Position numbers and translations under genes: made by a program. A stretch of 64,000 nucleotides of DNA from Paraspadella gotoi (lineage: Eukaryota > Animalia > Chaetognatha), in assembly GCA_051294375.1 (NCBI GenBank), contig CM119270.1, positions 959,238 to 1,023,237 of the forward strand. The letters run 5' to 3'. Shown here piece by piece: positions 5,172 through 62,956 of this stretch; position 1 is the stretch's first letter, and each line of letters opens with the position of its first letter. The notes beneath the pieces were generated by a model. The model did no database searches and was not told the DNA's origin. It was given only the letters and a program-made list of their open reading frames with translations.

Positions 5172-8100
5172 ATGGCGAGCCCCAGCCTGCCGCCCGTCTC
5201 CCTCAAGAACGGGCACCGGGTTCAAGTGTCGGGCAAAGACTCGACTGGCACGGTGGCCTTCGTGGGCACGACCCAGTTCGCGACGGGCAAGTGGATCGGC
5301 GTCGTCCTCGACAAACCAGAGGGGAAGAACAACGGAACCGTCCAGGGGAAGAAGTATTTCTCCTCTCCCGATAATCACGGCATCTTCGTGCGGCAGGTGA
5401 GGTTTTTTTGGGGGTGAGGTGGGTCGGCTTAAGTAGGGAGGAGATCCTGTGGCGGTATATTCACACCGCCCCACGTCCACCATCCTTCAGCCAAATCCAT
5501 TGGCTCAGAGGGGGAACACACCATCCCAGGCGTAGTGTTCCATCCACAGTCCTAACGACTTCCCTCTGCGTTGGCAAAGCGAGACCGTCCTAGGGTAACC
5601 GCGCCAGTGACTGGAGGCGTCACTGAGGGTCGGAAGCCCCCAAACTTGGGCCAAAGCCAACAGTGAGATGCCCCATCCCAATGGGCATCACAGGCAACCC
5701 GGCTGTTGCCATAATGTCATGTTAAAAAGTAATGATGATTGAGTTATCGTATTTTCCCCTTTGAGTTTGAACAAAAACATTTTGTTTCTTCATGTGTAAA
5801 ATTGTGCTTTACATCGCTCCATCCAGAGAAAGTTGTTCAATGAAACATAATTTTCTGCATTATGCAAATGATATTATTAAACTTTCATCTCCCCATTCTC
5901 AGAGTCAACTCATCTTGCTCACCCCAATGGACGGAGCAGGAGGAGGAATTCCCTTGAGCGCCTCTCGCGATTCCCTCTCTGGTTCCGGACGCGACGGCGG
6001 CAGCCCTTCCGCTCATGCCACGCCCCCGAGCGGCGGCTCCAAGTCCGCCTCTCGCGAGTCTCTCTCCATGGAACGCGCCAAGTCGACTCTCAGCTCTGGC
6101 GGCGCCGATCGACCCTCCAAGATCTCGTCGGCGGCCAAGACGCCCGCGTCTAGCATCTCAAAAATTCGACGCCAGCGCAGCAGCCTGATGCCGGATACGT
6201 CGCCGGCCGCTGCGACGACGACCGAGAAGAAGACGGAGAAGGAAAAGGCGAATAAGAAGGAGTCATCGGGTGGGGAAGAAGCTGGCGGCGGCGGCGGCGG
6301 CTCGTCCTCTGCTGTGCAGGCGATGACCGACGCAGTCTCCGCCAGTCTCGAAACGTTGCAGCTGAGGCAGGAAAACGAAGGTATGATGATAATATTTAAT
6401 AATGGAATAATATTTAATTAAATAATTTTTCTAACTTTTCTTAGAGCTGAAGAACGAAGCCCAGGACCTGAAGGAAAAATTGGAGACGCTGAAACTGAAG
6501 CGACAAGAGGACAAAGTCAAGTTGAAGGAGTTGGACAAGACCAAGATCCAGTTGGAAGAGTTGCAACGCTACAAGGTCAAGATGCAAGAATCCAACGCCG
6601 ATTTGCAGAAACAAATGCAAAACTCCAAGAGAGAGGCCAAGGACACTCAGGTTTGCCGATGGATTGGGTGTGGATGTAATATTGTGTTAAATTTAAATTG
6701 AATTATATATCAATTTAATTAGGAAATAAGTTTTTATTAGCAGAAAAACAACGATCTGTTTTGACAATAAATCGTTGTTTTTCCGCCAATAAAAACTTAT
6801 TTCCTAATTTAAAACGCAACGAAAAGAGAGATTAAACACAATAAATTTGAATTGCTATATTATTTGTTTTTTCTACGCAGGAAGCCTTCGATGCTTACAA
6901 AGAGGAAATGGCCGAAGTGGCGGAGTCAATGGAGATCGCCACGCTTGACAAGGAGATGGCTGAGGAGAAGGCGAGTGTGAATGAATGTGTGAGAGTGTGA
7001 ATGAATGAATAAACGTCCGAATGGATATGTCATTAAAAGATGTCGAAGAGAAGAGTGCGTGTAGGGAAGAATTTGACTCTATGAATGTCCATGTGAATGA
7101 ATGAATGCGTGTGAGAAAGAAGGAATTTGCGAATGAGTCGATGAATTTGCTAGCGACTTATCAAGCCTTATTATTCAATATATATAAATTTAAGCAAAAA
7201 GAGTAAAACGAAGAATCCAAAATCGCCACGAATGCTCTTTTGTCACGGCTAGTCCGGTATATCGCGCGTTTATCAGAGAAAAAACGAAATAAAAACAAAA
7301 GACAAACGAAAGAAAAAACTGTACAAAAGTCGGCGCCGATCCGCCGACCAATCAGCGCCCGCCCTGGAGCGGGAGCCAGTCCTCTTCGACATCCGGGCTT
7401 ACGAAAAGCTCACTCGTCCCTAGCAGTCCCCGGAGTCGAAACTCCACGAAACATCTCTGCAGTAAAAACGGAAGAAAGTCTGCGCTCCAGACCAATCTCC
7501 CGCTCGAAGGATGACGCCAAGATCCACTCCACGAGCGAAAGCCTCCGAGACCGCCATGGCCCGCGTTGAGCCAGGCGGCGCTGAAACGTCTGCCTCCAAG
7601 AAGAGAGCCTTGAGAATAGCCGCGAAGCGCTGCGTCGAGAGAGGTCTAAATATAGATATTGGGGTGCAGAACAGGAAATCGTGCGGCGGTGAAACAGAAG
7701 AACGAACTGCCAGCCAACTCCGTAAGGCTTCCACTGGGCATCTTGAAAAAATCTGGAAGGGCATCCAAGCGAAAGGCCGGCCCTTATGCCCGCACCCTAT
7801 CAAGTCTTGGAGAACGAAAGATGCCCGGCGTCGCAACGATGAGGAAAACTGATCGGCGAAGAATATCCCTCGGAGATGCTGGAAGAGGCGCCGAGTCGAG
7901 AATCNNNNNNNNNNNNNNNNNNNNNNNNNCTGCCGGACGCCTGCCTGGCCGCTCAGTTCGACGCGGCTTTCTCCGGCCGGGCCAACGCCGCCACTCTCCG
8001 GGCCCTCACGCGCACTATGCAGGAAGCGGGTGCCGCCGCACATGCAGTGCTTCATGCAGCGGATGAGCTTCGTTCTCTCAAATCTTCGGTTCTTGCGGGC

Positions 8101-11100
8101 TTGCCGAGGGATCAGATCGCAGAGGCTATTGATGATCTGGCCTCGCCTCTTAGCGACGTTGCTGCCTTTCAAGCGGCGGCTTTCAACTCGGCCATCAGCG
8201 ATGTACGTAAGACGGTTCTTGCCTCCGTTTCAACGGATTTGAGAGCAGCGCTTTCACGGGCCCCGCCCACTGTCGACTCCTTTTTCGGAAATCAGTCTTC
8301 CCAGATTGCTTCGGCGCTCAATTCGTCGCTCTTGCGCAACGTCTCTCGTCAGAGCAGTCGGATGATCGTCGCCCTCGCTTTCGCCCTAAGTCGCAATACA
8401 AGCCGAGAAAGGGTTTCAAGAAGACCTTTCCTCGCAAGAAATCGGGAAACGGCGAGGGCAGGGGCGACAAGACTTCAAAGTGACGCCCTCCTCCAGGACC
8501 TCGGTCGCCGCCTCGTCCGACCGTTTTGGCCCATTTAGACACGGATCCGCCCACGGACTGGATTTTGGACTCGGACCCTCCCCTCCCCGCCCTCCGCCCG
8601 GAGGCTCCAGTGGGAGGTCGTCTTCACCTCTTCCGCGATTTCTGGATTTCTCTCGTCGGAGAGGACTCCCTTTTACAGAACATTTCGGGCTTTCGCATCG
8701 GGGAGGAGGAGATTCCCGTTCGCCTTCCCCGTTCTTCGGACGAGACTCCACTTTTCGGAGATCGAGATGCAGTGTCGACGCCGAGATCTCTGCAGCGTTG
8801 GAAAAGGGCGCCATCGAGGAAGTCGACGAGTCTCCGGTTTTTATTCAAAGATCTTTCTTGTCCCAAAAAAGGATGGAGGTTGGCGCCCAATCTTGAACCT
8901 CAAGAAACTCAACGCCAAGTATCTCGACCCCCTTACTTTCGCATGGAGGGGGCTCAGGATGTCAAGAAGATGTTTCGTCGAGGGGATTGGGGGTCGTCGA
9001 TCGACCTTCGCGACGCTTACTTGCATCTTCCGCTTCACAAGGAGGATCGGAGATACTGCCGCTTCATTTGGAAGGGACGGATCTTCCAATACAGGGTCCT
9101 CCCCTTTGGCCTCGCAACGGGCCCGTGGTCTTCACCAAGACGACGAGGCCCTTGGTTCAGTGGCTTCGTCAGAGAGGCATCAGATGTCTTTTTTATATCG
9201 ACATTCTGATCCTGGCAGCGACAGAAGAGGATTGTCAACGTGCAACTTTGATGGCCGCTCGTCTGCTCAAGGAGGCCGGTTTCATCCTCCACCTGCAGAA
9301 GCGATTTTGCCCTGCCACGCTTGACTCCTGGATCACATGGCCTCTCCCACACGGTAGCCCTACCGTCGTCAAGAGAGGAGACCATTCAATCTCTGGCATC
9401 ATCGATCATCATGGACCCTTCGCCATCGGCTCGACGCCTCCTTCAACTGCTGGGTCACGCGACAGCAGCCTCCATGGCTTCCCCACTTCTCCGCTGTCGG
9501 TCTCGCGGATTCAGCGGGATGTGAACCAAGTCTACAAGTCGGACTCGACCTCAACCAGATCGTTCACCTCCGGGATCCGGCACTGGAGGAACTTCGCTGG
9601 ATGGCGGAGTTGTCAGAGGATCTCTGCTTCGCGCCTATCGACACTCTCCTTCCAGAAGCTTGCAAGCTCCAGGTCACGACGGATGCCTCGACCCAGGGGT
9701 GGGGCCTCCTTTTTCAAGGTCGTCTTCTGAGGGGGAAGTGGAAGGGTGCGGATGCCCTTCTCCATATCAATGTGAAGGAGTTCATGGTGCTTCGTCTCTT
9801 CCTCCAGCGATTCGGTTCCTCACACAGAGATTCGTCGATCCTTTGAAGACAGACAGTCTGGTTCCTCACCTGCCTTCGTCGGGGATCCAGCAGATCCCCG
9901 GTTCTCCACGAAGTTGTCCGGGACACTCTTTTATTGGCCCACAACTTCAAGATTCGCCTCACGGGAGTCCACATCGCCTCGGAGGAGAACCTCGTCACGG
10001 ATGCGGCTTCAAGGGGTCGCAAAGTAGCGGATTGGAAGCTCTTCCAAGAGTCTTCAAGCAGATTGTAGACCGCTTCGGCCTTCCCAACAATCGATCTATT
10101 TGCGACGTCGGCGTCAACTCAAGTTCCACGTTTTTTCGCTTGGGAAGCGTCTCCCAAAGCGGAGGGAGTGGATGCATTGGCCCAAGTTTGGGCCTTCGAC
10201 CTAGCGTACCTTTTCCTCCGCCTCCGTTACTGGCGATGGTGATCCGCAAGTTGGAGGACGCCAAGGGAGTCTTCCTCCTGATAACCCCTTTCTGGCCAGC
10301 GCAGAAATGGTTCCCAGCCTTCTCAATCTTCAGATTCTGGACGCGAGGCGACTTCCGACGCCAGACAAGCTCGTCATAGACCTCGTCACCGGTCTCCCTC
10401 CTCCACAGGCGGAGCGCTTCAAGCTCGTCATCTGGAAGATTTCAGGAGGCTCCACCGCCTCGCAGATGTCGACGACTCCACCTTCTCCATCATTGCTGAC
10501 AGCTGGCGAGGTTCCACCAGGGAGCGTTACGCTCGCGCTTGGGACTCCTTCCGCTCCTTCCTTCAGGACCGTGGAGTACAAGGACTTACAGCCTCTGTAG
10601 AAGACGTTCTCGACTATTTGGGCCAACTCTGCGAACGTGGCCTTTCTTCAGTACGATCAATCTTCATCGATCGGCTATTTCTTCTACGCTCCCCCCCATG
10701 GAGGGATTGCCTGTTGGGGAGCTTCCAGTTGTTCGCCGTTTGCTCAAGGGAGTTTTCGAGAGGCGCCCTCCTTCCGTCGACTCTTCCCGCCGTGGAATGC
10801 AGCTTCTGTTTTTGCAGATTCTCGACTCGGCGCCTCTTCCAGCATCTCCGAGGGATCTTCTTCGCCGATCAGTTTTCCTCACGCCCTAGCTTCGCTCGGC
10901 GCCCTTCGGAGCTGCTCCTTGTTGCGACGCCGGCATCTTTCGTTGGCTTCGGATCACGTGCGTTTTGTCCCTTCGAAGCTCTCCAAGACTGATAGGGTGG
11001 GGCATATGGGCCCGGCCTTTCGCTTTGGATGCCCTTCCGCGATCTTTCAAGATGCCCAGTGGAAGCCTTACGGAGTTGGCTGGCAGTTCGTTCTTCGGTT

Positions 11101-14100
11101 TCACCGCCGCACGATTTCCCTGTTCTGCGCCCCAATATATCCATTTAGACCTCTCTCGACGCAGCGCTTCGCGGCTATTCTCAAGGCTCTCTTCTTGGAG
11201 GCCAGACGTTTCAGCGCCGCCTGGCTCAACGCGGGCCATGGCGGTCCTCGGAGGCTTTCGCTCGTGGAGTGGATCTTGGCGTCATCCTTCGAGCGGGAGA
11301 TTGGTCTGGACGCAGACTTTCTTCCGTTTTTACTGCAGAGATGTTTCGTGGAGTTCGACTCCGGGGACTGCTAGGGACGAGTGAGCTTTTCGTAGCCCGG
11401 ATGTCGAAGAGGACTGGCTCCCGCTCCAGGGCGGGCGCTGATTGGTCGGGCGGATCGGCGCCGACTTTTGTACAGTTTTTTCTTTCGTTTGTCTTTTGTT
11501 TTTATTTCGTTTTTTCTCTGATAAACGCGCGATATACCGGACTAGCCGTACAAAAGAGCATTCGTGGCGAGGCGGACCGATGAGAATCTGTATTCCATTC
11601 GAATTTTGGATTTCCCCTTATTCGTTCTGAAGCTGTCATTTGGCTTGACAAACTTCTCTGAGGAGAGTCAGTAGGTTACGACAAGGTGATTAGAGGGCAT
11701 TGGTGCTTATTGCCTTTTCCAGAAGGTCTCCCTCTGTCTCAGCGAGCGAGACGGGGAGTCATTGTGCGGCCAGTGGTGGTTTGGGATTCATCCACCACCA
11801 TGATTTAGGGAAGGTTCAGGTTCAAGAGATTGACTTGTTTCCATCTTATTCAGTTTTTTATTTTTTATGGTTATATGTCTTTACACCATATTTTTTCTCT
11901 ATTTATAAACAATATATATGGTATTATTGATTAGGTATCTGACATTAAAATACAATGAAAGTTCATCAGGCGGGACAAACTCCGACGGTGATGAGGAGTC
12001 GACCCAACGACGCAAACGAGCGGGAGCAACGCGATGGCGAGAATCCCAAGCGTCGGAAAGCACTCCCGATGAACCGACATGACGTAGGGAGCGCCACTGG
12101 TCCAGCACCCAATCGGACGGCAGAGGCGCAGAACGGGCAGAAGGCACAAAATCCTCAAAGCCGCCCGCGACGTCTGAATCAGAAGAATCTTCCTCCTCCT
12201 CCGACGAATAGTGAGCATCCGGGTCCGGGGCGGTGTGGGACCGCTGCGACCAGTGGCGCTTAGGTGCTGGTCCTTCAGAACGCGAGGACGAGGCGGACTT
12301 GCCAATGGGGGACCGGCCTCTGGAGTCGGAACAGCAAGGAGTTGAGCGAGAAGGCGAAGAGGGGCGTAGAATAAACCGGACCGATGAAGGATCGTCACAT
12401 AAAAAAGAAACGTAAAAAACAGGAATTAGACATTAATTCATTTCTAAAAAAAAAACGCCAAAACCCTCCCCCCCTCCCTCTCCCCAACCCAAGCCCAGTC
12501 CTCCAAGCCACGAGAAAAAAAGGGTGGTGAACCAAAAAGGGGCGGAAGGCGGGTCTCGTGGCGAGGCGGACCGATGAAGAATCTGTATTCCATTCGGAAT
12601 TTTGGATTCTATCATCGGTCCGCCTCGCCACGAATGCTCCCTAACGAGAAGGCGAAGTGTTGGGGAAAAAATCGAAAGAGAAAAATAAAGGGAGAAACAA
12701 AAAAGGGGAGGCGAGGCGAACGTAACCAAAGGATACGTAACTAAATTTAAACTACTGAAAAAACGACGAACAAAATAAACTCACCGTCGTAAATCCTCCA
12801 AGTGGTGCCGCGTATCGCGGCGGTGCTCGTCAAACTCCTTCCTCATGCTGTTCAGCGACGACGTAAGAGTCGCTAGGAGCGACTCCAGTCCTCCAGTCTC
12901 GGCGCCCGGAAAATTCGACGGGGCTGTTAACTGGCCGCCACGAGGCCCAGGCTCCGGAGCGGGAGGGGCGGTGGAGGTGGTGGTGGCGGCGGGGGAGAGA
13001 CCACTCGAGTCCCGCTGGACCCCTCTCCCCCTGCAGGGGCCTCTCTTCAGGGCGGGCGCTGATTGGTCGGCGGATCGGCGCCGACTTTTGTACAGTTTTT
13101 TCTTTTGTTTGTCTTTTGTTTTTATTTCGTTTTTTCTCTGATAAACGCGCGATATACCGGACTAGCCGTGACAAAAGAGCATTCGTGGCGAGGCGGACCG
13201 ATGATAGAATTCCCTCCACGGTCAATCCCTCCATTCATTCTCTCTCTCTCTCTCTCTTTCAGGCGGAAACTCTCCAGACGGAACTGGATCTCCTCAAAGA
13301 GAAAAACGAGGAACTCAGCGTCGAACTCGAGTTGATGAAGGAGGAGATCGACAGCGGCGGGCTCGGCGGCGGCGGGAGCGGCGAAGGCGGCGGCGTGACC
13401 ACTTATCAGATGAAGCAGCTGGAGCAGCAGAACGACAGGCTCAAAGAGGCGTTGATGAAGTTCCGTGATTTGTCCCAACATGAAAAGCAGGAGAACGTTC
13501 GATTGATCAAGGCGAGTTTTGTGAGAAGAATCGTGTGTGAAGGCTGAAGCGTTTGGTGAGGGGGGGAGGGCTATTTTATCGGGTATAAATTTTGGTGAAA
13601 TCGCGAATAGACTTTGGAAATGTGGATTTAATCTCTTGTGGCATTATATGTCATTTTTAAGGAAAGATATTTATAATTTGAATAAGATTTTTTTAATGCT
13701 AGATATGACAACTTTGTGATTTTCATCCCCTTCTTCCGTCTTATTCCGCCGATAGGACAAAGACGTGGCCAACGAACAGATCAAAAAGTTGAGTCGGGAA
13801 AAAGAGAGTTTGTCCCGACATGTGGCCGACATGGAGAAGGAGATGGGAGACATGAAAGAACAGGTCAGTATAAATCTACTCCATTTATTTTACATTAGTA
13901 GCAAAGGCCTTTCTGAATTCAACTAAAAAACTATACGTGCATAATACAATTTTGCGCCATCCGAAAATCGGATATCAGTTGATTAAAAGTTCTCTCGAGC
14001 TGAATGGATTGAGTGAAGAGGTAAGTTTGTTAGGTGAACTTATTTCAAATTTTTAAAGGAAGCTAACGAAGCTAATGACATAGTTGGATTACATTAGTCA

Positions 14101-29728: not shown

Positions 29729-32700
29729 AAACTCGATTACCTTTTAGGTGGACGCCATCAAAGATCTTCTCCGAAAATCTCCCGAAAGATTTCCTCCGAT
29801 CGTTCTCAACGAAATAAAGAAACTCGCCGCGTCTTGGGACGACGACGAAGACAACGACAACAACAACGAATCTGGATTTAGCGAGAACGAAAACGTTTTG
29901 AACGAATCGACAACATCGACGACGACGTCTTCCACCAGCGGCGTTTCCAGCGACGAACCTGCCCACTTGCCGACGGCGCCGCCGCGGTCATCTCCGCCGC
30001 TCGGCGCTCAGCCCGCAGCCGCCGCAGCTGCCGCCGACCCCGCTCTTCCGCCACCTGCCGTCGATCGCGTCCGGGAGCAGCTGCCGCCGGAGATCCGCAG
30101 CCTCGTTGATAAGATGGAGAAGAGTTGGCGGGAAAACGGCGGCGCCTCGGCTGCTGCTGCTGCCGCGGCCGAAGATGCGACGCGGCGGCGGCGTCGAGAA
30201 GGTAGCTTCTCCGTGGAAAATAATTCTCTGGCCAACGCACTGCAGGGGACGCTGGAGACGCCGTCGGGACTTGCGTTCGTCGACCAGTTTCCGGACGACC
30301 TATTGCAGAAAACGGGAAAGGTTGTCTTCGTGTCTGAGGTGAGTTTATTATTATTTTTCTACTTTGGAAGACCTTCAATGAAGGTCCTTCATCAAAACTT
30401 TTTAATGTCAAATTGTTTATCCCAACTTTATTTTACTGGAACCTTATTTTACTCGAAAAATGAATGAGTCTGCCTAACTTTTACTCAACTCGGCTGCCAT
30501 ATGCCACGTCTCGGCTAACTTGGGACTTCGACTCGGCTAACTTGGCCCTGTTTATGGCCTGGTCATTACTAAATTGGGCCTGCCAATAGGCCTGGGTTTC
30601 AACTAACAATTTCTTCGATTCTTTTTCTCTTGTCTATTATTATCATCATCATTATTATTAACCAGGATCTCCTCCAACCCTCTCTAGCCCGTTCACACCC
30701 GCACGGCCATCGGCGTCCTCAAACCTCTCGCCGACGGAAATCGGAAGGCGGCGCTGTTTTCTCCCAAAGACCATCGCCTCCCGCGGATGCTCGTTCCCAT
30801 CGCCGACTGTCCCGCCGATTTCCTCGCCCGGCCAAACGATCACGCCAAGACTCTCTTCGTGGCCAAAGTGCTTGTAGAAAAAGGGGTGATGGGCACTGGG
30901 CAAGGGAGAATCTATCTCCGAACCCAGTAGAAGTCGCGGGCTTTTTGCCCTATTTCTGAACGGTCCTTTTAAAAGAGTAAGGAGCCGGTTAAACCACTAA
31001 CCATGTTCCGGAAAGGAAGGCAACTGAGCCCAAATTCTCCCCGACACCGTCAGAGGGGCATATCGACCCCTTCTCACTTAAGGATCTCGATTTTTTAATT
31101 AACTTTACTTTTACTTACTTTTTTACTTACTTTTCCTCGCTTTAGATTTCCGAGTGGAAGGAAACGTCGATGATGGCGCACGGTTGCGTCGTCAAAACTT
31201 TAGGAGACGCTGGTGAGGATTTGGGGGGAAACGGGGGAAGGCAGGAAATTGGGGGAGGTGGGGAATCCTTTAATTGGGGTGAGTAGTCTCACTAGTTCCA
31301 CCTCGAAAAGTCTTCTCTCTGTCTACTAACTTTAGGTCAAAGATCCCCCGTTTCAAAAATAACTAAATACTACTAAATTATTAATAAGATAAGTACTTCT
31401 TTATCGAGTTAAGAATGTATTGCATTGTGTTGACTATTTGTTAAAAAGGCGAGATAGAGCCGGAACACGAAGGCCTTCTCCTCGAACACGGATTCGACTC
31501 GGCCGACTTCGCCGACGACGTCCTCGACTGCCTTCCCTCTGTCGGGGACGACGAACAGTTTGACGTTCCCGAGGAAGTGATAAGGGAGAGGTCAGAGAGA
31601 GATATGGTTAGATTCCTAACGCGCTCGGAACTGGTCACCTTCCAATTTCCCCTCTTCAGATCCGCCAAGGGGTTCGACTTCCGCGCCAAGTGCGTCTTCT
31701 CCGTCGATCCGGCGACGGCTCGTGATCTCGACGACGCGCTCCACTGCGAATCCCTCGGCGACGGAGTCTTCGAAGTCGGCGTCCATATCGCCGACGTCTC
31801 CTACTTTGTCGAGTCCGGGACTCGGCTCGACGAGGTGGCGAGCCATCGCGCCACCAGCGTCTACATGGTCCACCGTATGATCCCGATGCTGCCGCGGCTG
31901 CTGTGCGAGCGGCTCTGCTCTCTGCAGCCGGGCGTCGACCGTCTCTCGTTTTCCGTCGTCTGGAGGATCAAGGAGAACGGGGAGATCTTGGACGAGCGAT
32001 TCGGGTCTTCGATCATCAGATCCTGCGCCAAGTTGGCCTACGAGCACGCCCAAGGCTTCATCGACGAGCCGAATCGAGAGTGGAAGGCCGAAGAATTGCC
32101 GGAAATTTCCGGTGGATGGACGTCGGTGGATCTCGCCGAGAAAGTCGGCAATCTCCAACGCATCGCTAAGAATCTGCGTCTCCAGAGATTCAAGAACGGA
32201 GCCCTCAGACTCGATCAGGTTCGGGAAGAAAGTCTCTCTGTCTGTCTTTCTTTCTTTCTCTTTTTCTCTCTCTGCTTCTTTTTGACTTTTTATTTGTCTC
32301 TTCTTCTGTTTCACATTCTCTGTTTTTCTCCAATTGACGATCCGGGGCCGCCCATAGATCAAACTCGCCTTCACTCTACATCCGGAGACCCGGATGCCGA
32401 TCGGTTATCGCGTCTACGATCACAACGACTCCCATCGCCTCATTGAGGAGTTCATGCTTCTCGCCAACATGGCCGTCGCTCATCGCCTCAACGAGTACTT
32501 TCCAGAGAAGGCGCTGCTAAGACGGTGAGGAGAGAGAGAGAGACTGACAGAGACAGAAAGAAAGCTCTTTCCGGGAATGGTGCTGCTCAGACAGTGAGGT
32601 TGAATTATAAGGAATTGTATCCCATTCCCTGTGGCTGCTGAGTTTTTCTATCGTTTGCAGAGAAATTTATTGTTGTTGGGTAGTGCGGGGTAATTCAGAA

Positions 32701-35700
32701 CACTGACATATAAAATGAAATAAACAAAATTGTTTAAAGATATTTTATAATTTTTTTTGCATTAAATGTTTCACCAACTTGACTTTCCATTATTCAAGTT
32801 AGAGCATTCCGCTGCTGCTGCTGCTGCTGCAGCAATTTCAAAGCTGCTCGTTTTTGAGTAATCGTTTTCAAGCCTCTGTCACAATCATATTTGACGTAAT
32901 ATGATTATGGAATATTAATATATGATAGACGAGTCGCCTAATTTTTAGTTATTGAATATCATATCATAACAGCGTGACTGCTCTCTGACGGGATGTGGTC
33001 ACGAATCCACAGTGAATAGGCAATGGGTTGATGAAGCGACACTCCTGAGAAAAGAGTTTTAATTGTCGACCACAAGGGGTGTTCTCCACACGAAGATGAA
33101 TAGGACGATGCACCACTGTTGGAGGGTGATTGTTGTGGGCGATTCCGGCGGGCGCCGGCCGGGCTTGAGAAGCACGAGACCCTCCAACGGGTGGACCACA
33201 ATGTCAGTTAACCACTCGGTCGACCACAATGTTGCCCACTGTGTAGGATCGGGGGACCAGAGATGTGGACGCGATCCGGAAAGCGTAAGCGAACACTGTG
33301 GAAGCGGCGATTTTTGAAGAACCCGAAACCGGGAGCGATAGAAAAATTGAGAATAAAGATTGAACCCGGAAGCTATAATAACCCTGCGTGTTCGCTTCCT
33401 GGTCATTTGTTTTTATTGGTTAGAAATGAAAGGTATTTAATGTATTAAAAATCTTTGCAACCCCCTGTTTTTCTTGATTTTTCTTATTAAAATTTTTTTT
33501 CAATATTTAAATTTGTTTGTTCTTATTTTTTTATTCACTTTTTTCTTATTCTCTTCTTTTATTTTTGGTTTTTCTTTTGTATTCTCTTCCTCTTGGTCGA
33601 GAATCTATGAAAAAAATTACATATTTATTTTTTTAATTATCTTTTTAATATATTAAATTAAAATCTGAGCTGAAACAAATATTTTTTCTATCTGAAAAAA
33701 AACTGTAATTATAAGTTAAATTAAAAATATAAATGAAAATTTTTTAATTCTATAAAACTAAAAAATTATTTTTTATATTTTTGTTATTTTTTTTTTTAAT
33801 TTAAGACTACCAAACAAGTTTGAGCAACAATGCCGGATCTGCCCACGATCATTATCGGATAATTAATTTAGTTGAAAAATAATAAATTATTTAATTATTA
33901 CATTCTGGTGGTCCTATCACCACAGATGGATTAAAGCTGTTTCTTTCACAGCGCCTCAGTGGCTCAGTGGACTAATGCACCCTCCAATTGTCGTCCCTGG
34001 TTCGAGCCCTGAGGTTGTCATGTAGAAAGTGGGATGGACCGGGTAACCCGCCTGTAGGCATGGGCCTACTGCCAGATCCAAAGCTCTGGACTACATGAAC
34101 ATGCTGTCTCGCTGTCCCCACGAGGTGACACCGCTGCGGGTGTGGCGCCCTGTAAAACCAGCCTCAATGGTGAGCCCGACGTGATACGAACACGCAACCA
34201 ACCGGGATGATAATACTCCTCTGCCTTGATGTGGTTTGAGCTACGCAGCTGCCACTCAAAGCAGGCCACCAGAATGAAGAGAGGTTCAGCGGAGAGACAT
34301 GCGCTTCATCCCCCTGCTTCGTACTCTCATATGCGAGAGTCCTGGGGGCGGCTGTCTGTGGTCCTATCACCACAGATGGATTAAAGCTTTTCTTTCACAG
34401 CGCCTCAGTGGCTCAGTGGACTAATGCACCATCCCAATGTGCGTCCCTGGTTCGAGCCCTGAGGTTGTCATGTAGAAAGTGGGATGGACCGGGTAACCCG
34501 CCTGTAGGCATGGGCCTACTGCCAGATCCAAAGCTCTGGACTACATGAACATGCTGTCTCGCTGTCCCCACGAGGTGACACCGCTGCGGGTGTGCGCGCC
34601 CTGTAAAACCAGCCTCTTCAACATATTTATTAATTAAAAGAATAACATCGAACATTTGGCAGCTCAAATGATTTGAACAAAGACGATAACGACGACGAAT
34701 ATATGACGAAGACAACCCGTAGTACAGTAGTGGTCAATAAGAATGACCTGTTCATACCCAACCTTATTATGGCTAACCTAATGTAAATACTAGTTGTTAT
34801 TATTTTATCATTTTTGCTTGTTTGTTTTTTCGTTTTTTTTATATAATTATGACAAAAGAAATGACGACCATGATGATGATGACGAGGAAACACCGTCATG
34901 ATTAATGAATAATTGATTGATCAATTAAATGAAATTCATATCAGGCCTGTTAGTTTTTAGGTCTTTTCGTCAGGTCACTGACCAAGACAAAAGCAAAAAC
35001 GACGTTGGAGATGACGACAATGTTAATACTGACATTGTTTAATTGATTAATTGATTAATTAATTAATTGGTTCTTTTAATAATTTATTGATAAATAAATT
35101 TTTAATTAGTGAATGTTAAATTAATTGATTAATTAAATTATTGATAAATAAAAAAATTGATTCATTAATTTTTTGATTGATTAGTTGATTAGTTAATTGA
35201 TTGATTGATTAATTGATTAATTAAATAATTAATGCAGTTTGTATTTACATTTAATAAAAGAAAAAAGCAAATATGAAACAGGTTTTTTTTTAATTTAAAT
35301 TTATTTCCACAAAAACGATTCTTACAATCTTACAATTTTTCATAGTAAAAATTTTACTTGTTAAGATTGTTTAAAATTATTCTACCAATGAATTACATGT
35401 CTAAAGAGAATATTTTTTTAAATAATAAAAAATGTAAAATTTATAAAAGAAGGAAGCGATGTGCACTCGAACCGAAAGCGATCCGGGCTAAAAAAGTAAG
35501 GATTGCACCCGAAAACGGGAGCGGGAGGGGCTTGGAAGCGCCGCGCGGATTGGCAGCGGCGGAAAAATCGATCGCTTCCACATCTCTGCGGGGGACGCCA
35601 TCCTAGATTAGACAACACTCGAACGCGTTCTTTCTTATTAACACGAAGCTCACAAGGCTGTAAAACTGACTACAATAATATTAATTAATAATCATTGTAT

Positions 35701-38627
35701 TTTTGACTTTCTCTTTTGCTGTTTGAAATAGTTTAGAGATGAAAAGAAAAATTCGTTGGAACAGCAATTTAGTTTTTATTAATGTGTACATGTTTCGACT
35801 CTTAGTGGTACGAGTCTTCTTCATCATTTATTTGTTTTATCAAAACAAATAAATATCCTCTATTTTATTTTCATATCTCCTTCTCTCTCTCTTTTCTCCT
35901 TTAATTATATGTAGCTCTCTCTCTCTCTCTTTTCCCCAGTGCTTATTCATCGGAAAAAAAACGAGTCTGCAGCTGGCTCTGCAGGGGCTCTTTCTGTTTC
36001 TCTCTTTTCTCCTGCTGCTTCTGCCTTTTGATTTCTTTCTTTTTTTCTGGCTGCCTATGCTGCTGCCGCTGCTGATTCGTCCGAAAACGATTTGGCTTCT
36101 CTCCCTCTCTCTTCGTTTTTATTAAAAAAAAAATTGAATTAGGATTGAACTCGTAAAATTAGGCATCGCATTCGTGCATTTATCATTTTGCTATCGCAAC
36201 ATCGGGTTTTTATTTCGTTTTTTTTCTCAGGGGCTGCGTCTGCTGATCAGTTTATTTTTTGACAATGAAATTTTTTTTATTGACAATCGCAAAATAGAAT
36301 TTTTCATTCTTTTTATAAATTAATTTTCTTTTCTCAAATTTTTTTTTTAGTATCAAAATTTGTTGTCAATCCAGATTTTTCTTATGCGATTGCGACGATC
36401 CTTATGGTTTTAAGATTTTTAAAAATAAATTTACTATGTGAAAAATTTGAATACTTTCAAAAGTGTTCCGAATTAAACCGCACTACCCTATTGGATGTTA
36501 TCGCGACACAATCCGCTTTGATTATTTTCGTCTCTCCCAATTTTTATTTGTCTCATATTTAACTGTAGCAGATTAATTTATAGATTATTTCAAATGAGAT
36601 TGAGTTCCTTAATCTCATTTGCATATTGTCATTCTCATACAGCTATATCACCCTGTTATATAATTGATTCATAAACCCAACCCGCGCAGAAACTTCTTGA
36701 GTTATAAGAATTGCAAGTCTCAAAGTCTCAAAGAGACGAACTATATGTATGTAAACTAATATTACATTAAAAAAACTGCACGTTAAGCCTCCCATAAAAT
36801 TACTTCATCTCAAATTTATGACCTGTGCACAGCGAATGCGACGTTGACGTTGACGTGAAAAGATCTCAATTTTTTTTGCATGATTGTTTAATTTGCTTTC
36901 TGGTTAGTTGTTTTTCGGATTTCGTTTACAAAGTAGAGAGTTTTTATTTTGATTAAACGACGATTTAATTTGTTTCGGTTCTTGTTCGAACCTTCATCAG
37001 CGCAATCGTTGTTTAATCAAAATAAAAACTCTCTATTTTGTAAACGAAATTTTTTTTTTAAATATTCACGTCACGAGACGTTTTATTCCATGTCAAATCA
37101 CGGGATCGTTCCTTTTTTTCATTTTTCTTCAGTCATCCGCCGCCGCAGGAAAATCTGATGGAATCGATCGAACGATTTTGCGAATCTCTTTCGATCCACA
37201 TCGACATCTCTTCCTCGGGAGCGCTGCAGAAGTCGCTGCAGAGCCTCGTTACAGCCGACGGCTTCTCTGCAGCCAGGCTCCAGGTTGGAGAGGGGCGTTG
37301 GGATTTTGACTGAGCCTGGTATTATATGACCGAAGAACTTGAGACCTTGTTGTCCATCCCAATAGCCTTTCCTCGCCCCTCCCTCACTTCCCCTTTCCCG
37401 CCCTCCCTCACTTCCCCTTCCCCGCCCCTCCCTCACTTCCCCTTCCCCGCCCCTCCCTCACTTCCCTTCCCCGCCCCTCCCTCACTTCCCCTTCCCCGCC
37501 CCTCCCTCACTTCCCCTTCCCCCTCTCAGGTTCTTACGGCGATGTTCGCTCGTCCGATGCAATTGGCCGAATATTTCTGCGCAGGCAAAATCGTCGACCC
37601 GATGACTATCATCACTACGCCTCAACGTTCCCTCTACACTCACTTCACCAGCCCCATAAGAAGGTAGCCGAGTCGAGTTTTCTCCTTCGAGATGTTTTAT
37701 GTCATTGCATTAAACTTCTCTACCAATAGTGACTTTAATTTCATTTCTTGTTCCCATTTGCAAGTTGTGATTAATCCAATCTTTTTTTTTCCCCGCCAAG
37801 ATACCCCGACGTGGTCGTCCACCGAATGCTGAAGGCGTCCCTCTCTTCGCCGCCGACGCGGAATCGAGCCCGGGATCGATCCAAGTCTTTCTCCTCGACG
37901 GCGAGTCGCTGCAACAAGATGAAGGCGGCGGCGAAGAAGATTTCCGAGGCGAGCGCCGAGATTTTCTTCGCTCTTTACGTCAAGCACTGCGGACCGGTTG
38001 AGGAAAAAGGTGAACGAGGGAGTCGTTGGGCTTTTATAGTCTTTGTTGTAAAGAGATTACGTTCTATACAGTTTACATTATGTATAATGAACAATGTGGA
38101 CGATCATAACAAGCAGAAATAGGGAGGGGATGCTTCACGGTTGTCTTTCGTGGTCGAAAGTCGGCTGTTTCGTTTGTGAACGAAACAAAACGAAAACAGA
38201 AAAAATGAAAGGAAATGAAATTATTAAGAATACTCAATTTCCACTCCCCCCCCCCTTGACTGCAGCCATGGTGATGTCCCTCCTCAACCGATCCTTCGAC
38301 ATTCTCCTTCTCCAATCCGGCGTCACCAAACGCGTCTATCTCGATCGCTGCGGCCTCGAGTCTTATCGCCTTCTTAAGAAAGAGGGCTCCCCGCCGCAGC
38401 TGCGGCTCAAGTGGCCGCCGCTCGACGCTGCGGACGCCGCGGAAGACGTCGAGAACCGCGACGCCGCTTCCGCCGCAGCCTCGGCAGCTCCGGCCGCCCC
38501 GGCGCAGCTTCGGATTCAAACCATCGACGTCTTCGATCTCGTCGACGTTGTCCTGAAGACTGTCGACGAGCCGCTCAAGTTCTCCGCCATTTTGCGTCGT
38601 CCGGAAGTCGAAGACGATGAGGGATGA
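28638..38627 (+). CDS. DIS3L2: DIS3-like exonuclease 2 (RNB family 3'-5' exoribonuclease), about 12 exons
   Basis: [41 protein letters not shown] motifs [47 protein letters not shown]. No N-terminal PIN domain is seen. Exons ~28638-29210, 29564-29653, 29748-30338, 30666-30867, 31146-31212, 31449-31576, 31660-32218, 32358-32524, 37133-37283, 37530-37663, 37801-38009, 38266-38627. Confidence 0.93.
34018..34098 (+). ncRNA. Twister ribozyme, circularly permuted type P5 (tandem copy 1)
   Basis: TCATGTAG-AAA-GTGG-GA-TGG-ACCGGG-T^AA-CCC-GC-CT-GTAGGC atgg GCCTAC-TG-CCAGA-TCCAAAGC-TCTGG-A-CTACATGA. Closing stem TCATGTAG/CTACATGA, P3 and P4 stems, T1 pseudoknot CCA:TGG, T2 GC:GC. Predicted cut 34044/34045. 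Confidence 0.85.
34468..34548 (+). ncRNA. Twister ribozyme type P5 (tandem copy 2)
   Basis: Same sequence as 34018-34098, 450 nt downstream; predicted cut 34494/34495. Confidence 0.85.
36583..36628. repeat. Fullest copy of a dispersed short palindromic repeat containing ATGCAAATGAGAT
   Basis: CAAATGAGATTGA-gttcc-TTAATCTCATTTGCATA; partial copies near 2275, 3782, 5862, 14372, 26660, 45557, 45740, 48436, 51548, 52614 and 58330. Confidence 0.75.
37372..37525 (+). repeat. C-rich minisatellite (~22-24 bp unit CCCTCCCTCACTTCCCCTTCCCCG) directly upstream of a splice acceptor
   Basis: About 6-7 tandem copies are visible. Confidence 0.9.
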
Positions 38628-59378: not shown

Positions 59379-62300
59379 ATGGTGGACTTCGACGTTGACC
59401 GGTGGATCGAAGTCTCGAAACAATGCAATTATCTACCCGAGAACGAGTTGAAGCGGCTCTGCGACATCGTCTGCGACCTGCTGCTGGAAGAGTCCAACGT
59501 CCAACCCGTCTACACCCCCGTCACCGTCTGCGGGGACATCCACGGCCAGTTCTACGACCTGGAGGAGCTCTTTCGACGAGGGGGTCAGGTCCCCGACACC
59601 AACTACATCTTCATGGGAGACTTTGTGGACCGGGGCTACTACAGCCTGGAGACGCTGACGCGGCTGCTGCTGCTCAAGGCTCGGTGGCCGCACAAGATCA
59701 CGCTGCTGCGGGGGAATCACGAGAGTCGACAAATCACTCAAGGTTTTGGAGAAAGGGGGGAGAGGGGGAATGGGTTGAAGGGTGTCAGGGGGGAATGGGT
59801 TTAAGGGTGTGACAGGGAAATGGGTTGAAGGGTGTTAGGGGGAATGGGTTGAAGGGTGTGAGGGGGAATGGGTTGAAGGGTGTCAGGGGGAATGGGTTGA
59901 AGGGTGTCAGGGGGAATGGGTTGAAGGGTGTCAGGGGGAGGAATGGGTTGAAGGGTGTCAGGGGGAGGAATGGGTTGAAGGGTGTGACGGGGGGAATGGG
60001 TTGAAGGGGTGAGGGGGAAAAATGGTTTAAGGATTGGTTACTAAAGTCGCGAATGCCAAATCGACGTAATATCGTCCTGAATTAATCCACATTAGAGTTG
60101 TCATTTTATACAATATAAACAAAGCTATACATGGCTCACGAGTTTACATCATTCCTAAAGTTAATAAAAAAACTTTGTTGTTCCACGAAAATTTTCGTTT
60201 TTTAATTAATCATTAGACACATTTGAATCCGACAAAGTTTTAATTAGATAACCAGTCTGGGTGTCATTCTGTTCGTTTTTCCAAGCTCTTTTTAACGAAA
60301 ACAGTTTTATTTAAAAAAAAAACTTTTTCGCCCGAGCCAGGGGTGAAGAGTCAAAATATGAAAATTCACCATTTTTTAGTATTTTTTAACTTTTTCCAGT
60401 TAATTTTTTTAAATATAATATTCTTTAATCAAGTTAATTACTTCTGATAATGATTTTAATTTATCCTATTTAACTGTTTTTTAAACATTCATTAAAAAAT
60501 ATTAGTTTTTAGCTTAAACCAAGGGTATTGAAGAGCTAAAATGTTTAAATATTTTTTTTTAATATTTATAAATTATAATTTATTATTTTTTTAAAAATAA
60601 CTTATTTTAATCATGGTAATGAAAATATTTGATATCTTTAAATGCTTTGAGGCGACTTACCACAACTTTAAGTTAATCAATTAATTTAATAATGTTTTTT
60701 AAAACTGAAAACCCCAAAAACTTTTATGATCCAAAGCAATTAATTTTAATTTTTAATCATAAAATGTAATTGTTACAAGATAAAATTATTTAAATAATAT
60801 TCGGATATTACTATAAAAAAAATTTGTTTACTTCATACTATATAAATATAATTTTATTTAAAAAATAATTTAAAAAAAATGATATCTGCATATGAAATTT
60901 TGTACGGATAAGAGTAATAGTTTGGTTTTAACTCTATATACAAATATTTTGTTATTATAATAAAATAATTTTTCTTTAATATACAATCATTTTAAAAAAA
61001 TAATTAATTGCTTTTTACTTTTTTCATTAAATAATTGTTTAACAAAAAAGTTTTGTTTTTTCTCACTAAATCTAAAAACAAGAAAAGAAAGTTATGATTT
61101 TATAACACGATTCATTAAAAATACTACCTCTTATAGTCGCATTCATATATTTAAATTAAATTCATAAATTCATTTAGATACTATTTTATATATAATAATA
61201 TTGTTAATTGTTAATTTACTTGATTAGCAAAATTCCATAAATTAAAACATTGTGTTGAACTCTTTTATTGCATTTTTAGATTTAAGATATTAACAAATAA
61301 ATCTTAATTGAATTTGTTTAAAAAAAAATTTTTTATCGTTGTTAACAAATTCATTTTAAATTATTCTTTTTTGTAAATCTCTAAAACAACAACAAAAAAA
61401 GAAAGTATCACCACATGTAATTATGTTTAAACAAAAATTTTTTTTAATAAATAAAAAGTTTTTCTAAAGTTAAATTAAAATTTTAATTAAAATATAAATA
61501 TTTCTATCCTAGCATCAGGTAAGTCCCTCCCCTAAGCCACCATACCTCACGTCTCGGCGTCACAGGCCAAGCATGAACCTTGAACCTATACATCGTCCAT
61601 AAAACTTTTCCATTCTGTAACTTTCCCAGTTGGGTTATACTATTACAACAACCTTGTTGATCGTAATGCTAACTTATTCAACCTGAATTACAACTACCTC
61701 TCAAATAGTTTAAAACTAAACACTAACCCTTAACCATTAACAAAATTATTATTTTTTTATGCGATATCGCATAAAAATCTGGATAGTGGATATCATTTGT
61801 ATTATAATTATATTCTTTTGTTATGTAACAATTTTATTATTAATGATTTTTTAAATATCAATTTCCTTTCCTATTTTCTTTCGTTGTATTTTTTCAAATT
61901 ATTTTAGAGAAAACAAAGTTCCCTTGTTTGTTTGTAAACAACGATTTTTATATCACAATTCACAAAGTCGGGAACCTGATCCAATTCAAGGAAGGGCTCG
62001 TAAGAAGGCAATGTGGTCCTGAAGAAGAAGCAATGACTAGATGGTGGACAATTAGAATAAGGAAAAAAGATTCTCTCCCCCCTCTCTCTCTTTCTTTCCC
62101 TCTTTCCTTGAAAAGGTTACCGGAGCGGCGCCCAAAAATTACGCCACGCTTTTGGTTCTTGCTCCGCCACTAACCTATTAAAGCACCTTTACTAACTTTC
62201 TAACAAACAAAACAAACTTTGTTTTCTGCTAAAATATTATATGATCTAAAAAATTTTATGAATTGCTTTATTTTTAAGATGAATCTTTTAAAAAATTTTT

Positions 62301-62956
62301 TTAGAAATAGATCACAATAGTTTTTAATGCTTTTAATTATAAAAAAATTAACTATGTTAATTAATTTAAAAAACCATTTAAAATTTTCAAATATTTTTAT
62401 TATCATGATTAAAATATGTAATCCTTAAAAAAATAGTAAATTATTATTTGAAAATATTAAAAAAGACAATTTAAAAATCTTAGCTCTTTAACACCCCTGG
62501 CTTAAGCCCTATGAATATTTTAAAAATAGTTGAATATGATAAATTAAAAGCATTATCATTAGTAATTAACTTGATTAATGATAATTATATTAAAAAAAAA
62601 AAAGAAAAAAGCTAAAAAATATTCATAAAAGGTGAAATTCCATATTTTGGCTCTTTAACACCCCTGGCTCGGGCGAAAAAGTTTTTTTTTTTAAATAAAA
62701 CTTTTTTAGTTAAAAAGAGCTTGGAAAAACGAACAGAATGACACCGAGACTGGTTGTTTATTTAAAACATTGTCGGATTCAAATGTGTCTATTAGACACA
62801 AGGTTGAGACAGAGAATGATTTATTCTCTCAAAAAGTGAAAAGCAATAACAAGATCAATACTACGTCGGGTCACTATTTACAGGACAAAGGAACAAACAT
62901 AAGGACATGTTCAGGACATGGTAAAACAAAGGATAAGTCGTGAAACCCGTTGGTGA

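Follow-up and report, generated by a model that had tools for sequence, protein, structure and literature searches.

What kind of element leaves two copies of the same ribozyme-like motif 450 bp apart in an animal intron, and does the ribozyme take part in its propagation? These questions are raised by a 64,000-nucleotide stretch of the genome of the chaetognath Paraspadella gotoi (contig CM119270.1, positions 959,238 to 1,023,237; hereafter, the window), where a short repetitive element lies in sense orientation within a 4.6-kb intron (32525..37132, + strand) of DIS3L2; the limits of this intron were read from its splice sites, and the exons on either side match DIS3L2 residues 367-555 and 657-705. 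Vps52 of the window has only metazoan matches, the best named ones at 64-67%, and in a tree of 25 proteins it groups only with two records on a long branch, outside any particular phylum. The initial annotation of the locus had proposed a twister retrozyme driven by RNA polymerase III (Pol III), made of some 1.6 tandem units in the style of elements without long terminal repeats (LTRs), and copied round an RNA circle into insertions of more than unit length with arbitrary end points. Our analysis indicates instead that the element is almost certainly a retrotransposon of the LTR type. Its sequence features fit those of a non-coding terminal-repeat retrotransposon in miniature (TRIM) of the Helenus type, namely two LTRs, a length below 1 kb, a primer-binding site (PBS), a polypurine tract (PPT), a 4-bp target duplication and A and B boxes. 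We further propose, tentatively and with somewhat less than even confidence, that a predicted twister in each LTR lets this TRIM work as an LTR retrozyme.

Ends and anatomy of the element

The element (33904-34620, 717 bp; Table 1) occurs once in the window, as judged by self-BLAST. The spaced repeat on which the initial annotation was built was readily confirmed: 33904-34165 and 34355-34616 are 97.7% identical over 260 aligned bases, with a spacing of 450, share a run of 153 identical bases and differ at about nine places. Its interpretation has to be revised, because what had been taken for 1.6 tandem units is an LTR-internal-LTR arrangement. Both ends, which were thought to fall mid-element, are fixed LTR ends of a family and are flanked by a 4-bp duplication, ACAT, and the hairpin believed to span the unit junction is the first feature within each LTR. 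The PBS, the G-tract, the TG...CA ends and the target duplication had all been overlooked.

Evidence on the family comes from the contigs of five public runs (four studies), some of which may be the source of the window itself, and which were compared with the region through tables of variants, joints and loose ends. Summed contig depth is not equivalent to copy number and was used only for steps at the LTR ends. In run X2, this depth rises from ca. 3,000 in the flank to more than 200,000 just past 33904, and it falls from 203,000 to 45,000 past 34168. Loose ends with unrelated flanks appear before 33903 and 33904 in, respectively, at least six and at least nine X2 contigs, and behind 34165 plus TTCA in at least 23 contigs of X2 and at least seven of run X6. 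The copies thus have fixed ends which, together with the PBS, the G-tract and the 4-bp duplication, refute the arbitrary end points by the very test that the initial annotation had set for them. SM-alpha of Schistosoma also has a tRNA-like head and two ribozyme motifs spaced by one unit, but a tandem non-LTR retrozyme that inserts with arbitrary end points, after more than one round of copying of its circle, is very improbable here, in view of the fixed TG...CA ends, the 4-bp duplication, the PBS, the G-tract and an LTR depth several-fold above that of the internal part. Besides, animal non-LTR retrozymes have longer duplications and no LTR, PBS or PPT (PMC7229834).

In X6, depth in single contigs is 872 for the LTR versus 210-226 for the internal part, which suggests the existence of solo LTRs, with the caution that depth is not copy number. 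All four runs examined for joints contain the joint 33897>34621 with ACAT present once, which is either an empty allele or a paralogue of the landing-site repeat; the 4-bp duplication itself is readable at this one insertion only. As for that landing site, contig depth of the flanks indicates that the element lies inside another multi-copy, AT-rich repeat. Both flanks (33700-33899 and 34625-34800) are multi-copy, contig depth being very high around 33774-33860 and 34625-34780, and contain short conserved motifs separated by AT-rich stretches.

Relative to the family majority, the copy in the window is missing single bases in several positions. Its 5' LTR is devoid of the initial TG and of three bases near its end; a relative (X10) starts with TG at 33902-03. 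Missing single bases resemble the errors of error-prone long reads and, among the contigs listed, none extends across the entire insertion or across its left junction, both of which would agree with the duplication being an assembly artefact. We find this hardly credible, because single contigs with the order LTR-internal-LTR exist in runs of two studies (X1, X2 and X6), because the target duplication agrees with the empty site, and because the LTRs, despite their differences, share private alleles. Both carry two minority alleles (33948, 34117 and their partner positions), as expected if one copying event made both LTRs. The family is young and has many copies.

The tRNA-like head of each LTR is a predicted internal Pol III promoter, with an A box at 33960-33970 and a B box at 33999-34009 (34409-34419 and 34449-34459 in the second copy), whose respective sequences TGGCT...TGG and GGTTC agree with the Helenus consensus for the tRNA-derived boxes of its LTRs (Kojima 2024, PMC10886601). 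ARAGORN found no tRNA gene at this head, and there was no Rfam tRNA match. The PBS coincides with that of Gypsy-32_NVi at 17 of 18 bases and, by eye, pairs with the Apis mellifera tRNA-Trp of Fig. S2 in Kojima. The G-tract is short, with purines in seven of its eight positions and one C interrupting it. There is no stop-free frame of 110 aa on the + strand within the element. The internal part contains two stable hairpins, 34207-34265 and 34312-34351, the latter ending in the G-tract, which could be packaging or priming signals.

Table 1. Features of the element, in coordinates of the window
Feature	Position	Strand	Basis
Target-site duplication, left copy, ACAT	33900..33903	+	Sequence; single ACAT in the empty-site joint
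5' LTR, 263 bp, CA end	33904..34166	+	Self-alignment; contig depth changes in a step at 33903/33904 and 34165, where loose ends also collect
Hairpin at LTR start (second copy, 34355-34376)	33904..33926	+	Sequence, folding
tRNA-like head, predicted Pol III internal promoter, with acceptor-like stem	33953..34015	+	Sequence compared with the Helenus box consensus
Twister-like motif of type P5, 5' LTR; predicted cut 34044/45	34018..34098	+	Comparison with the layout in Table 1 of Liu 2021
Vestigial P1	34038..34050	+	34039-42 self-complementary; 34040-43 can pair with 34047-50 across the cut site
Predicted 450-nt monomer between cut sites, with PBS, G-tract and one permuted LTR	34045..34494	+	Inferred
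Internal part, non-coding, 186 bp	34167..34352	+	Depth below that of the LTR; single LTR-internal-LTR contigs in X1, X2 and X6
PBS (tRNA-Trp 3' end), one base past the 5' LTR	34168..34185	+	Comparison by eye
G-tract, likely PPT, one base ahead of the 3' LTR	34344..34351	+	Sequence; resembles wasp Helenus tracts
3' LTR, 268 bp, TG...CA	34353..34620	+	X1 and X6 contigs cease matching at 34620
Second twister-like motif, identical; G34483, predicted cut 34494/95	34468..34548	+	Sequence
Target-site duplication, right copy, ACAT	34621..34624	+	Sequence; empty-site joint

The twister-like motif of the LTRs

Each LTR carries, behind the tRNA-like head, a motif that follows the layout of type P5 twisters (Liu 2021, PMC8501958), and 34010-34105 is identical to 34460-34555. 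In the 5' LTR, the motif comprises P5 (34018-25/34091-98, 8 bp), the general-base G34033, T1 (34035-37/34078-80, CCA:UGG), a linker (34038-43), the UAA site (34044-46), T2 (34050-51/34083-84), P3 (34052-71) and P4 (34072-76/34085-89, five pairs). The initial annotation had thus correctly located the A and B boxes as well as the closing stem, P3, P4, T1, G34033 and the UAA site. Compared with the published layout, AAA, P2, G-A, T1, U-A-A, GC, P3, P4 and the 8-base loop follow one another in the P5 permutation, with an intact general base, general acid, A+2, trans A-A pair and L4 as well as two intact pseudoknots. T1 is fully compensated on both strands (CCA:UGG for the canonical CCC:GGG) and can be extended to 4 bp, and P3 contains the same U-U mismatch as the twisters of Schistosoma.

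The description of the motif as a complete permuted twister holds for the core residues and the P5 layout, but not for two of the stems. Where the P1 stem is expected there is no more than a palindromic linker of six bases, and P2, with three bases instead of four in its 5' strand, forms either 2 bp or, with a bulge, 3 bp rather than four pairs; both departures are family-wide. A survey that lists ca. 2,600 tested twisters along with the genetic context of each reports that twisters tolerate defects in P1, P2 and P4 and are sensitive only at the pseudoknots and catalytic residues (McKinley 2024, PMC11662667). Likewise, P1 is considered dispensable (Liu 2021, PMC8501958; PMC11662667) and C is tolerated at position -1 (PMC11662667).

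A relaxed twister descriptor, composed post hoc after the sequence had been seen, matches the two motifs and nothing else in the window, and only one of 25,960 dinucleotide shuffles of the element; dropping the P5 requirement gives five matches in 25,960 shuffles. A core-only descriptor also matches at 5596, without a P5 stem, probably by chance. Rfam scans showed no hammerhead, nor a second ribozyme in the internal part, which was subjected to no further test. Outside the window, a strict pattern retrieved no match from metagenome contigs and none from viral contigs. Loci retrieved with a looser pattern (at least 118, ca. 480 estimated) were discarded as chance matches, because none of the 118 had a downstream pseudoknot partner or a BLAST match to the element.

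An X6 contig of 99 nt and depth 872 equals 34000-34098 with zero differences, so the window carries the majority form. One listing of variants contains eight variable places within 34018-34098, which fall on the linker, on position -1 or on P3 with its loop, and never on a catalytic or pseudoknot position; another includes at least one single-contig change affecting P2, besides several that affect P3 or the initial base of P4 and in part disrupt pairing. Run X6 did not serve as evidence of expression, its RNA nature being a guess and the intron flanks being covered too. We regard a meaningful twister cleavage as fairly probable.

The same organism contains a diverged relative of the motif. An X6 contig of 3,622 nt, which has no tRNA head, matches 34008-34091 without gaps and with 15 differences over 84 bases. 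Among the six of these 15 differences that are listed, there is a T at 34039 and at 34043, which leaves the linker self-complementary, and a C at position -1; there is no listed change at 34045-34052, so the relative appears to keep the 3-base P2 strand. Its contig has a depth of 160 in X6, high against other low-depth contigs, and variants matching it reach a depth of ca. 204 in X2, like single copies. Naiad Penelope-like elements, which are devoid of hammerheads, are 3.4-4.4 kb long; it is possible that the tail of such an element was the donor of the twister, the length of the 3,622-nt sequence being a fitting one.

Processing and copying of the predicted transcript

As a model, the proposal already made in the initial annotation is reasonable: two twisters, spaced by 450 nt, would cut a Pol III transcript and release a monomer able to circularise. 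Transcription would start near 33953, driven by the A and B boxes. As the LTR has no run of four T past the B box, both twisters would be part of any transcript that reads through the TTTCTTT near the beginning of the second LTR. Their predicted cuts between U and A (34044/45 and 34494/95) would generate 5'-OH and cyclic phosphate termini and set free an RNA of 450 nt (in the family-majority form, longer by a few bases) without terminal repeat; as such RNA has no terminal redundancy, its ends would have to be joined before copying. The predicted ends of the monomer can pair over five bases (34046-50 with 34490-94) and would in this way be presented to an RtcB-type ligase, the ribozyme then being blocked in the circle. 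Copying round the circle from the tRNA-Trp PBS could stand in for the first strand transfer, and plus-strand priming at the G-tract would restore the TG...CA ends. The primer site and the 4-bp duplication point to a helper of the Gypsy type, which would reverse-transcribe the monomer and integrate it with 4-bp duplications. Plant LTR retrozymes provide a precedent for the same layout and mechanism (PMC4918200).

More speculatively, the palindromic linker may let two twisters swap halves and share a P1, in which case the two-LTR precursor would be cut better than solo LTRs or the finished circle. In two-dimensional (2D) energies, which leave pseudoknots unscored, the swapped dimer beats two monomers by 10-12 kcal/mol. 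Amphibian hammerheads have been reported to need dimers (PMC7229834), and we found no dimer-acting twister in the papers that we searched. The full sequence of events, that is, a first animal LTR retrozyme that is also the first twister retrozyme, with a Pol III-driven two-LTR precursor that alone is cut, its twisters having swapped halves by way of the palindromic P1, ligation through the end stem and a self-silenced 450-nt circle as the tRNA-Trp-primed template, must be deemed improbable as a whole.

A number of points weigh against a function as retrozyme. All the runs are contigs, none of them on record as RNA, and cleavage, RNA and circle are predictions only. The Rfam search that the initial annotation had called for produced no twister match at the gathering score or at E values up to 10. 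In 2D energy, the active fold (-22.4 kcal/mol) is 5-7 kcal/mol less stable than two inactive ones, a slipped fold (-29.3) that pairs G34033 and T2, and a hairpin across the cut site (-27.8). The slipped fold profits equally from dimerisation, a self-pairing centre is present in 14% of random 6-mers, and the self-complementarity of the linker is informed by a single diverged relative with six of its 15 differences listed. Nor is the predicted circle unusually stable, with 64% of its bases paired and a folding z of -1.4 (-2.0 for the linear monomer). The TTTCTTT run upstream of each head might stop Pol III early; in the window copy, the second of these runs is TTTTCTTT, one base shorter than in the majority. 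The family is too young for a test of selection, so the intact residues are no proof of function. Besides, an uncut transcript already has a long terminal redundancy and, hence, a TRIM needs no ribozyme; no ribozyme is shown by the Helenus sequences examined in the supplement of PMC10886601.

In one rival explanation, the element is an ordinary Helenus-type TRIM with a passenger twister, acquired with a captured SINE-like (short interspersed element) unit of tRNA plus twister or with a Penelope-type tail, that cuts rarely or never, while the uncut transcript replicates by normal strand transfer. The greater stability of the inactive folds and the defects in P1 and P2 agree with it, the youth of the family would explain the intact residues, Kojima derives Helenus from the insertion of a SINE into an LTR (PMC10886601), and the related twister occurs in the same organism in a different 3.6-kb sequence without tRNA head. 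On the other hand, the family majority shows no damage at any residue that cleavage depends on, and defects in P1 and P2 are usually tolerated. Moreover, copies less than 90% alike still align through the motif, some of them ungapped, and if the ribozyme were active in both LTRs it would destroy the uncut template, so that its retention calls for an explanation. We consider a mere passenger rather unlikely.

Alternatively, an active twister could form the 3' end in place of a Pol III terminator, with the RNA 33953-34494 being copied linearly and the doubly cut RNA being a dead end. An RNA cut in the 3' LTR only would keep a terminal redundancy of 92 nt, the competing folds would make cleavage partial, and the LTR has no run of four T after the B box, whereas many Helenus LTRs, by eye, have a T-run after the tRNA-like part. 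Yet the two twisters are identical and the first is transcribed first; we found nothing that would make it less active, and in the predicted fold of the precursor the 5' half that is sequestered belongs to the second twister. We judge 3'-end formation to be unlikely, and continue to favour, with the reserve already expressed, a TRIM that works as an LTR retrozyme.

The window contains other repeats that are separate from the element. A frameshifted retroelement occupies ca. 7220-11590 and 12550-13230, with reverse-transcriptase-like and tyrosine-recombinase-like frames (translations by eye) and inverted terminal repeats at 7223-7813 and 10980-11570 (self-BLAST); it is probably of the DIRS type. 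A pyrimidine-rich minisatellite of six 25-bp copies (37369-37522) fills a short DIS3L2 intron, and an inverted repeat pair of ca. 430 bp and 83% identity (60214-60648 and 62371-62791) lies between exons of a phosphatase gene of the PP2A family, likely PP6.

Comparison with known systems

As in Helenus (TRIMp3; Kojima 2024, PMC10886601), we find a non-coding TRIM of less than 1 kb with A and B boxes in both LTRs, a PBS for the 3' end of a tRNA, a G-tract, probable solo LTRs and, as in animal Helenus, 4-bp duplications. A tRNA-Trp PBS is used by a wasp Helenus family and by Gypsy-32_NVi, and transcription by Pol III from the boxes is unvalidated for Helenus as well (PMC10886601). Unlike in Helenus, a twister-like motif follows the tRNA head here. 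The text of PMC10886601 does not mention twister, and the word ribozyme figures in it only within a title that it cites. Four probes specific to the LTR and twister had no match in its whole supplement (line breaks could hide a few), which suggests a likely independent origin; the canonical twister loop motif occurs there once, in surroundings that do not form a twister. Should the twister-like motif of our element not cut, we would be dealing with one more Helenus family.

The element shares with plant LTR retrozymes (PMC4918200) its non-autonomous nature, a ribozyme per LTR (here predicted), PBS, PPT, 4-bp duplications, solo LTRs (here probable) and Gypsy-like priming. In plants, the doubly cut RNA has no R repeat and has been proposed to be copied as a circle (PMC4918200). 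The element differs in its animal host, in having a predicted twister instead of a type III hammerhead and a tRNA-Trp instead of a tRNA-Met primer, in its tRNA-type promoter, as opposed to the apparent Pol II promoter in the retrozyme LTR of Nicotiana benthamiana (PMC12029980), and in a monomer of 450 nt rather than about 600-1000 nt; circles have been shown in plants and are predicted here. Because the motif is twister-like and not a type III hammerhead, the element may work like a retrozyme without being a member of the group as defined.

With type P5 twisters (Liu 2021, PMC8501958), the motif has in common the U-A-A site, the general-base G followed by A, the pseudoknots, L4, P3, P4 and the AAA before P2; it departs from the canonical twister in its 6-base palindromic linker for P1, its 3-base P2 5' strand, its five pairs in P4 and in remaining undetected by Rfam. 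Twister variants of Perere-3 and RTE (PMC8501958, PMC7761336) also have a weak or variable P1 and a very similar P3 in an animal retroelement; those are single, of type P1 and placed at the 5' end of autonomous non-LTR elements, whereas here two of type P5 bracket a non-coding LTR element.

Animal non-LTR retrozymes and SM-alpha (PMC7229834, PMC6765202, bioRxiv 10.64898/2026.07.22.740005) resemble the element in their host kingdom, their non-coding nature and their ribozymes one unit apart. Unlike it, they are Penelope-linked tandem repeats with type I hammerheads and no LTR, PBS or PPT, a set of traits that the element does not display; the absence of PBS and PPT from animal hammerhead repeats was already noted in 2016 (PMC4918200). 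A tRNA-type Pol III promoter beside a ribozyme is already known from SM-alpha, where the ribozyme is a hammerhead; a twister retrozyme we did not find in print.

In July 2026, LTR retrozymes were still assigned mainly to plants and to type III hammerheads (bioRxiv 10.64898/2026.07.22.740005), and twisters are known from non-LTR elements and viroid-like circles. We found no twister in an LTR, no animal LTR retrozyme and no ribozyme in TRIMp3 in the published literature, most subscription journals and Repbase not being covered; as Rfam misses this twister variant, similar elements may have been overlooked. If our proposal is true, LTR retrotransposons would have adopted ribozyme-made RNA circles more than once, with interchangeable classes of ribozyme, and eukaryotic twisters would gain a second natural role beside the processing of the 5' ends of non-LTR elements. 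The retrozyme model with a circle as template is still a proposal; it becomes testable in a family like this one, which is small, young and high in copy number, has a known primer and offers a one-base catalytic mutant. Compared with all these systems, the combination of TRIM, twister and tRNA promoter appears to be new, with each of its parts already known separately.

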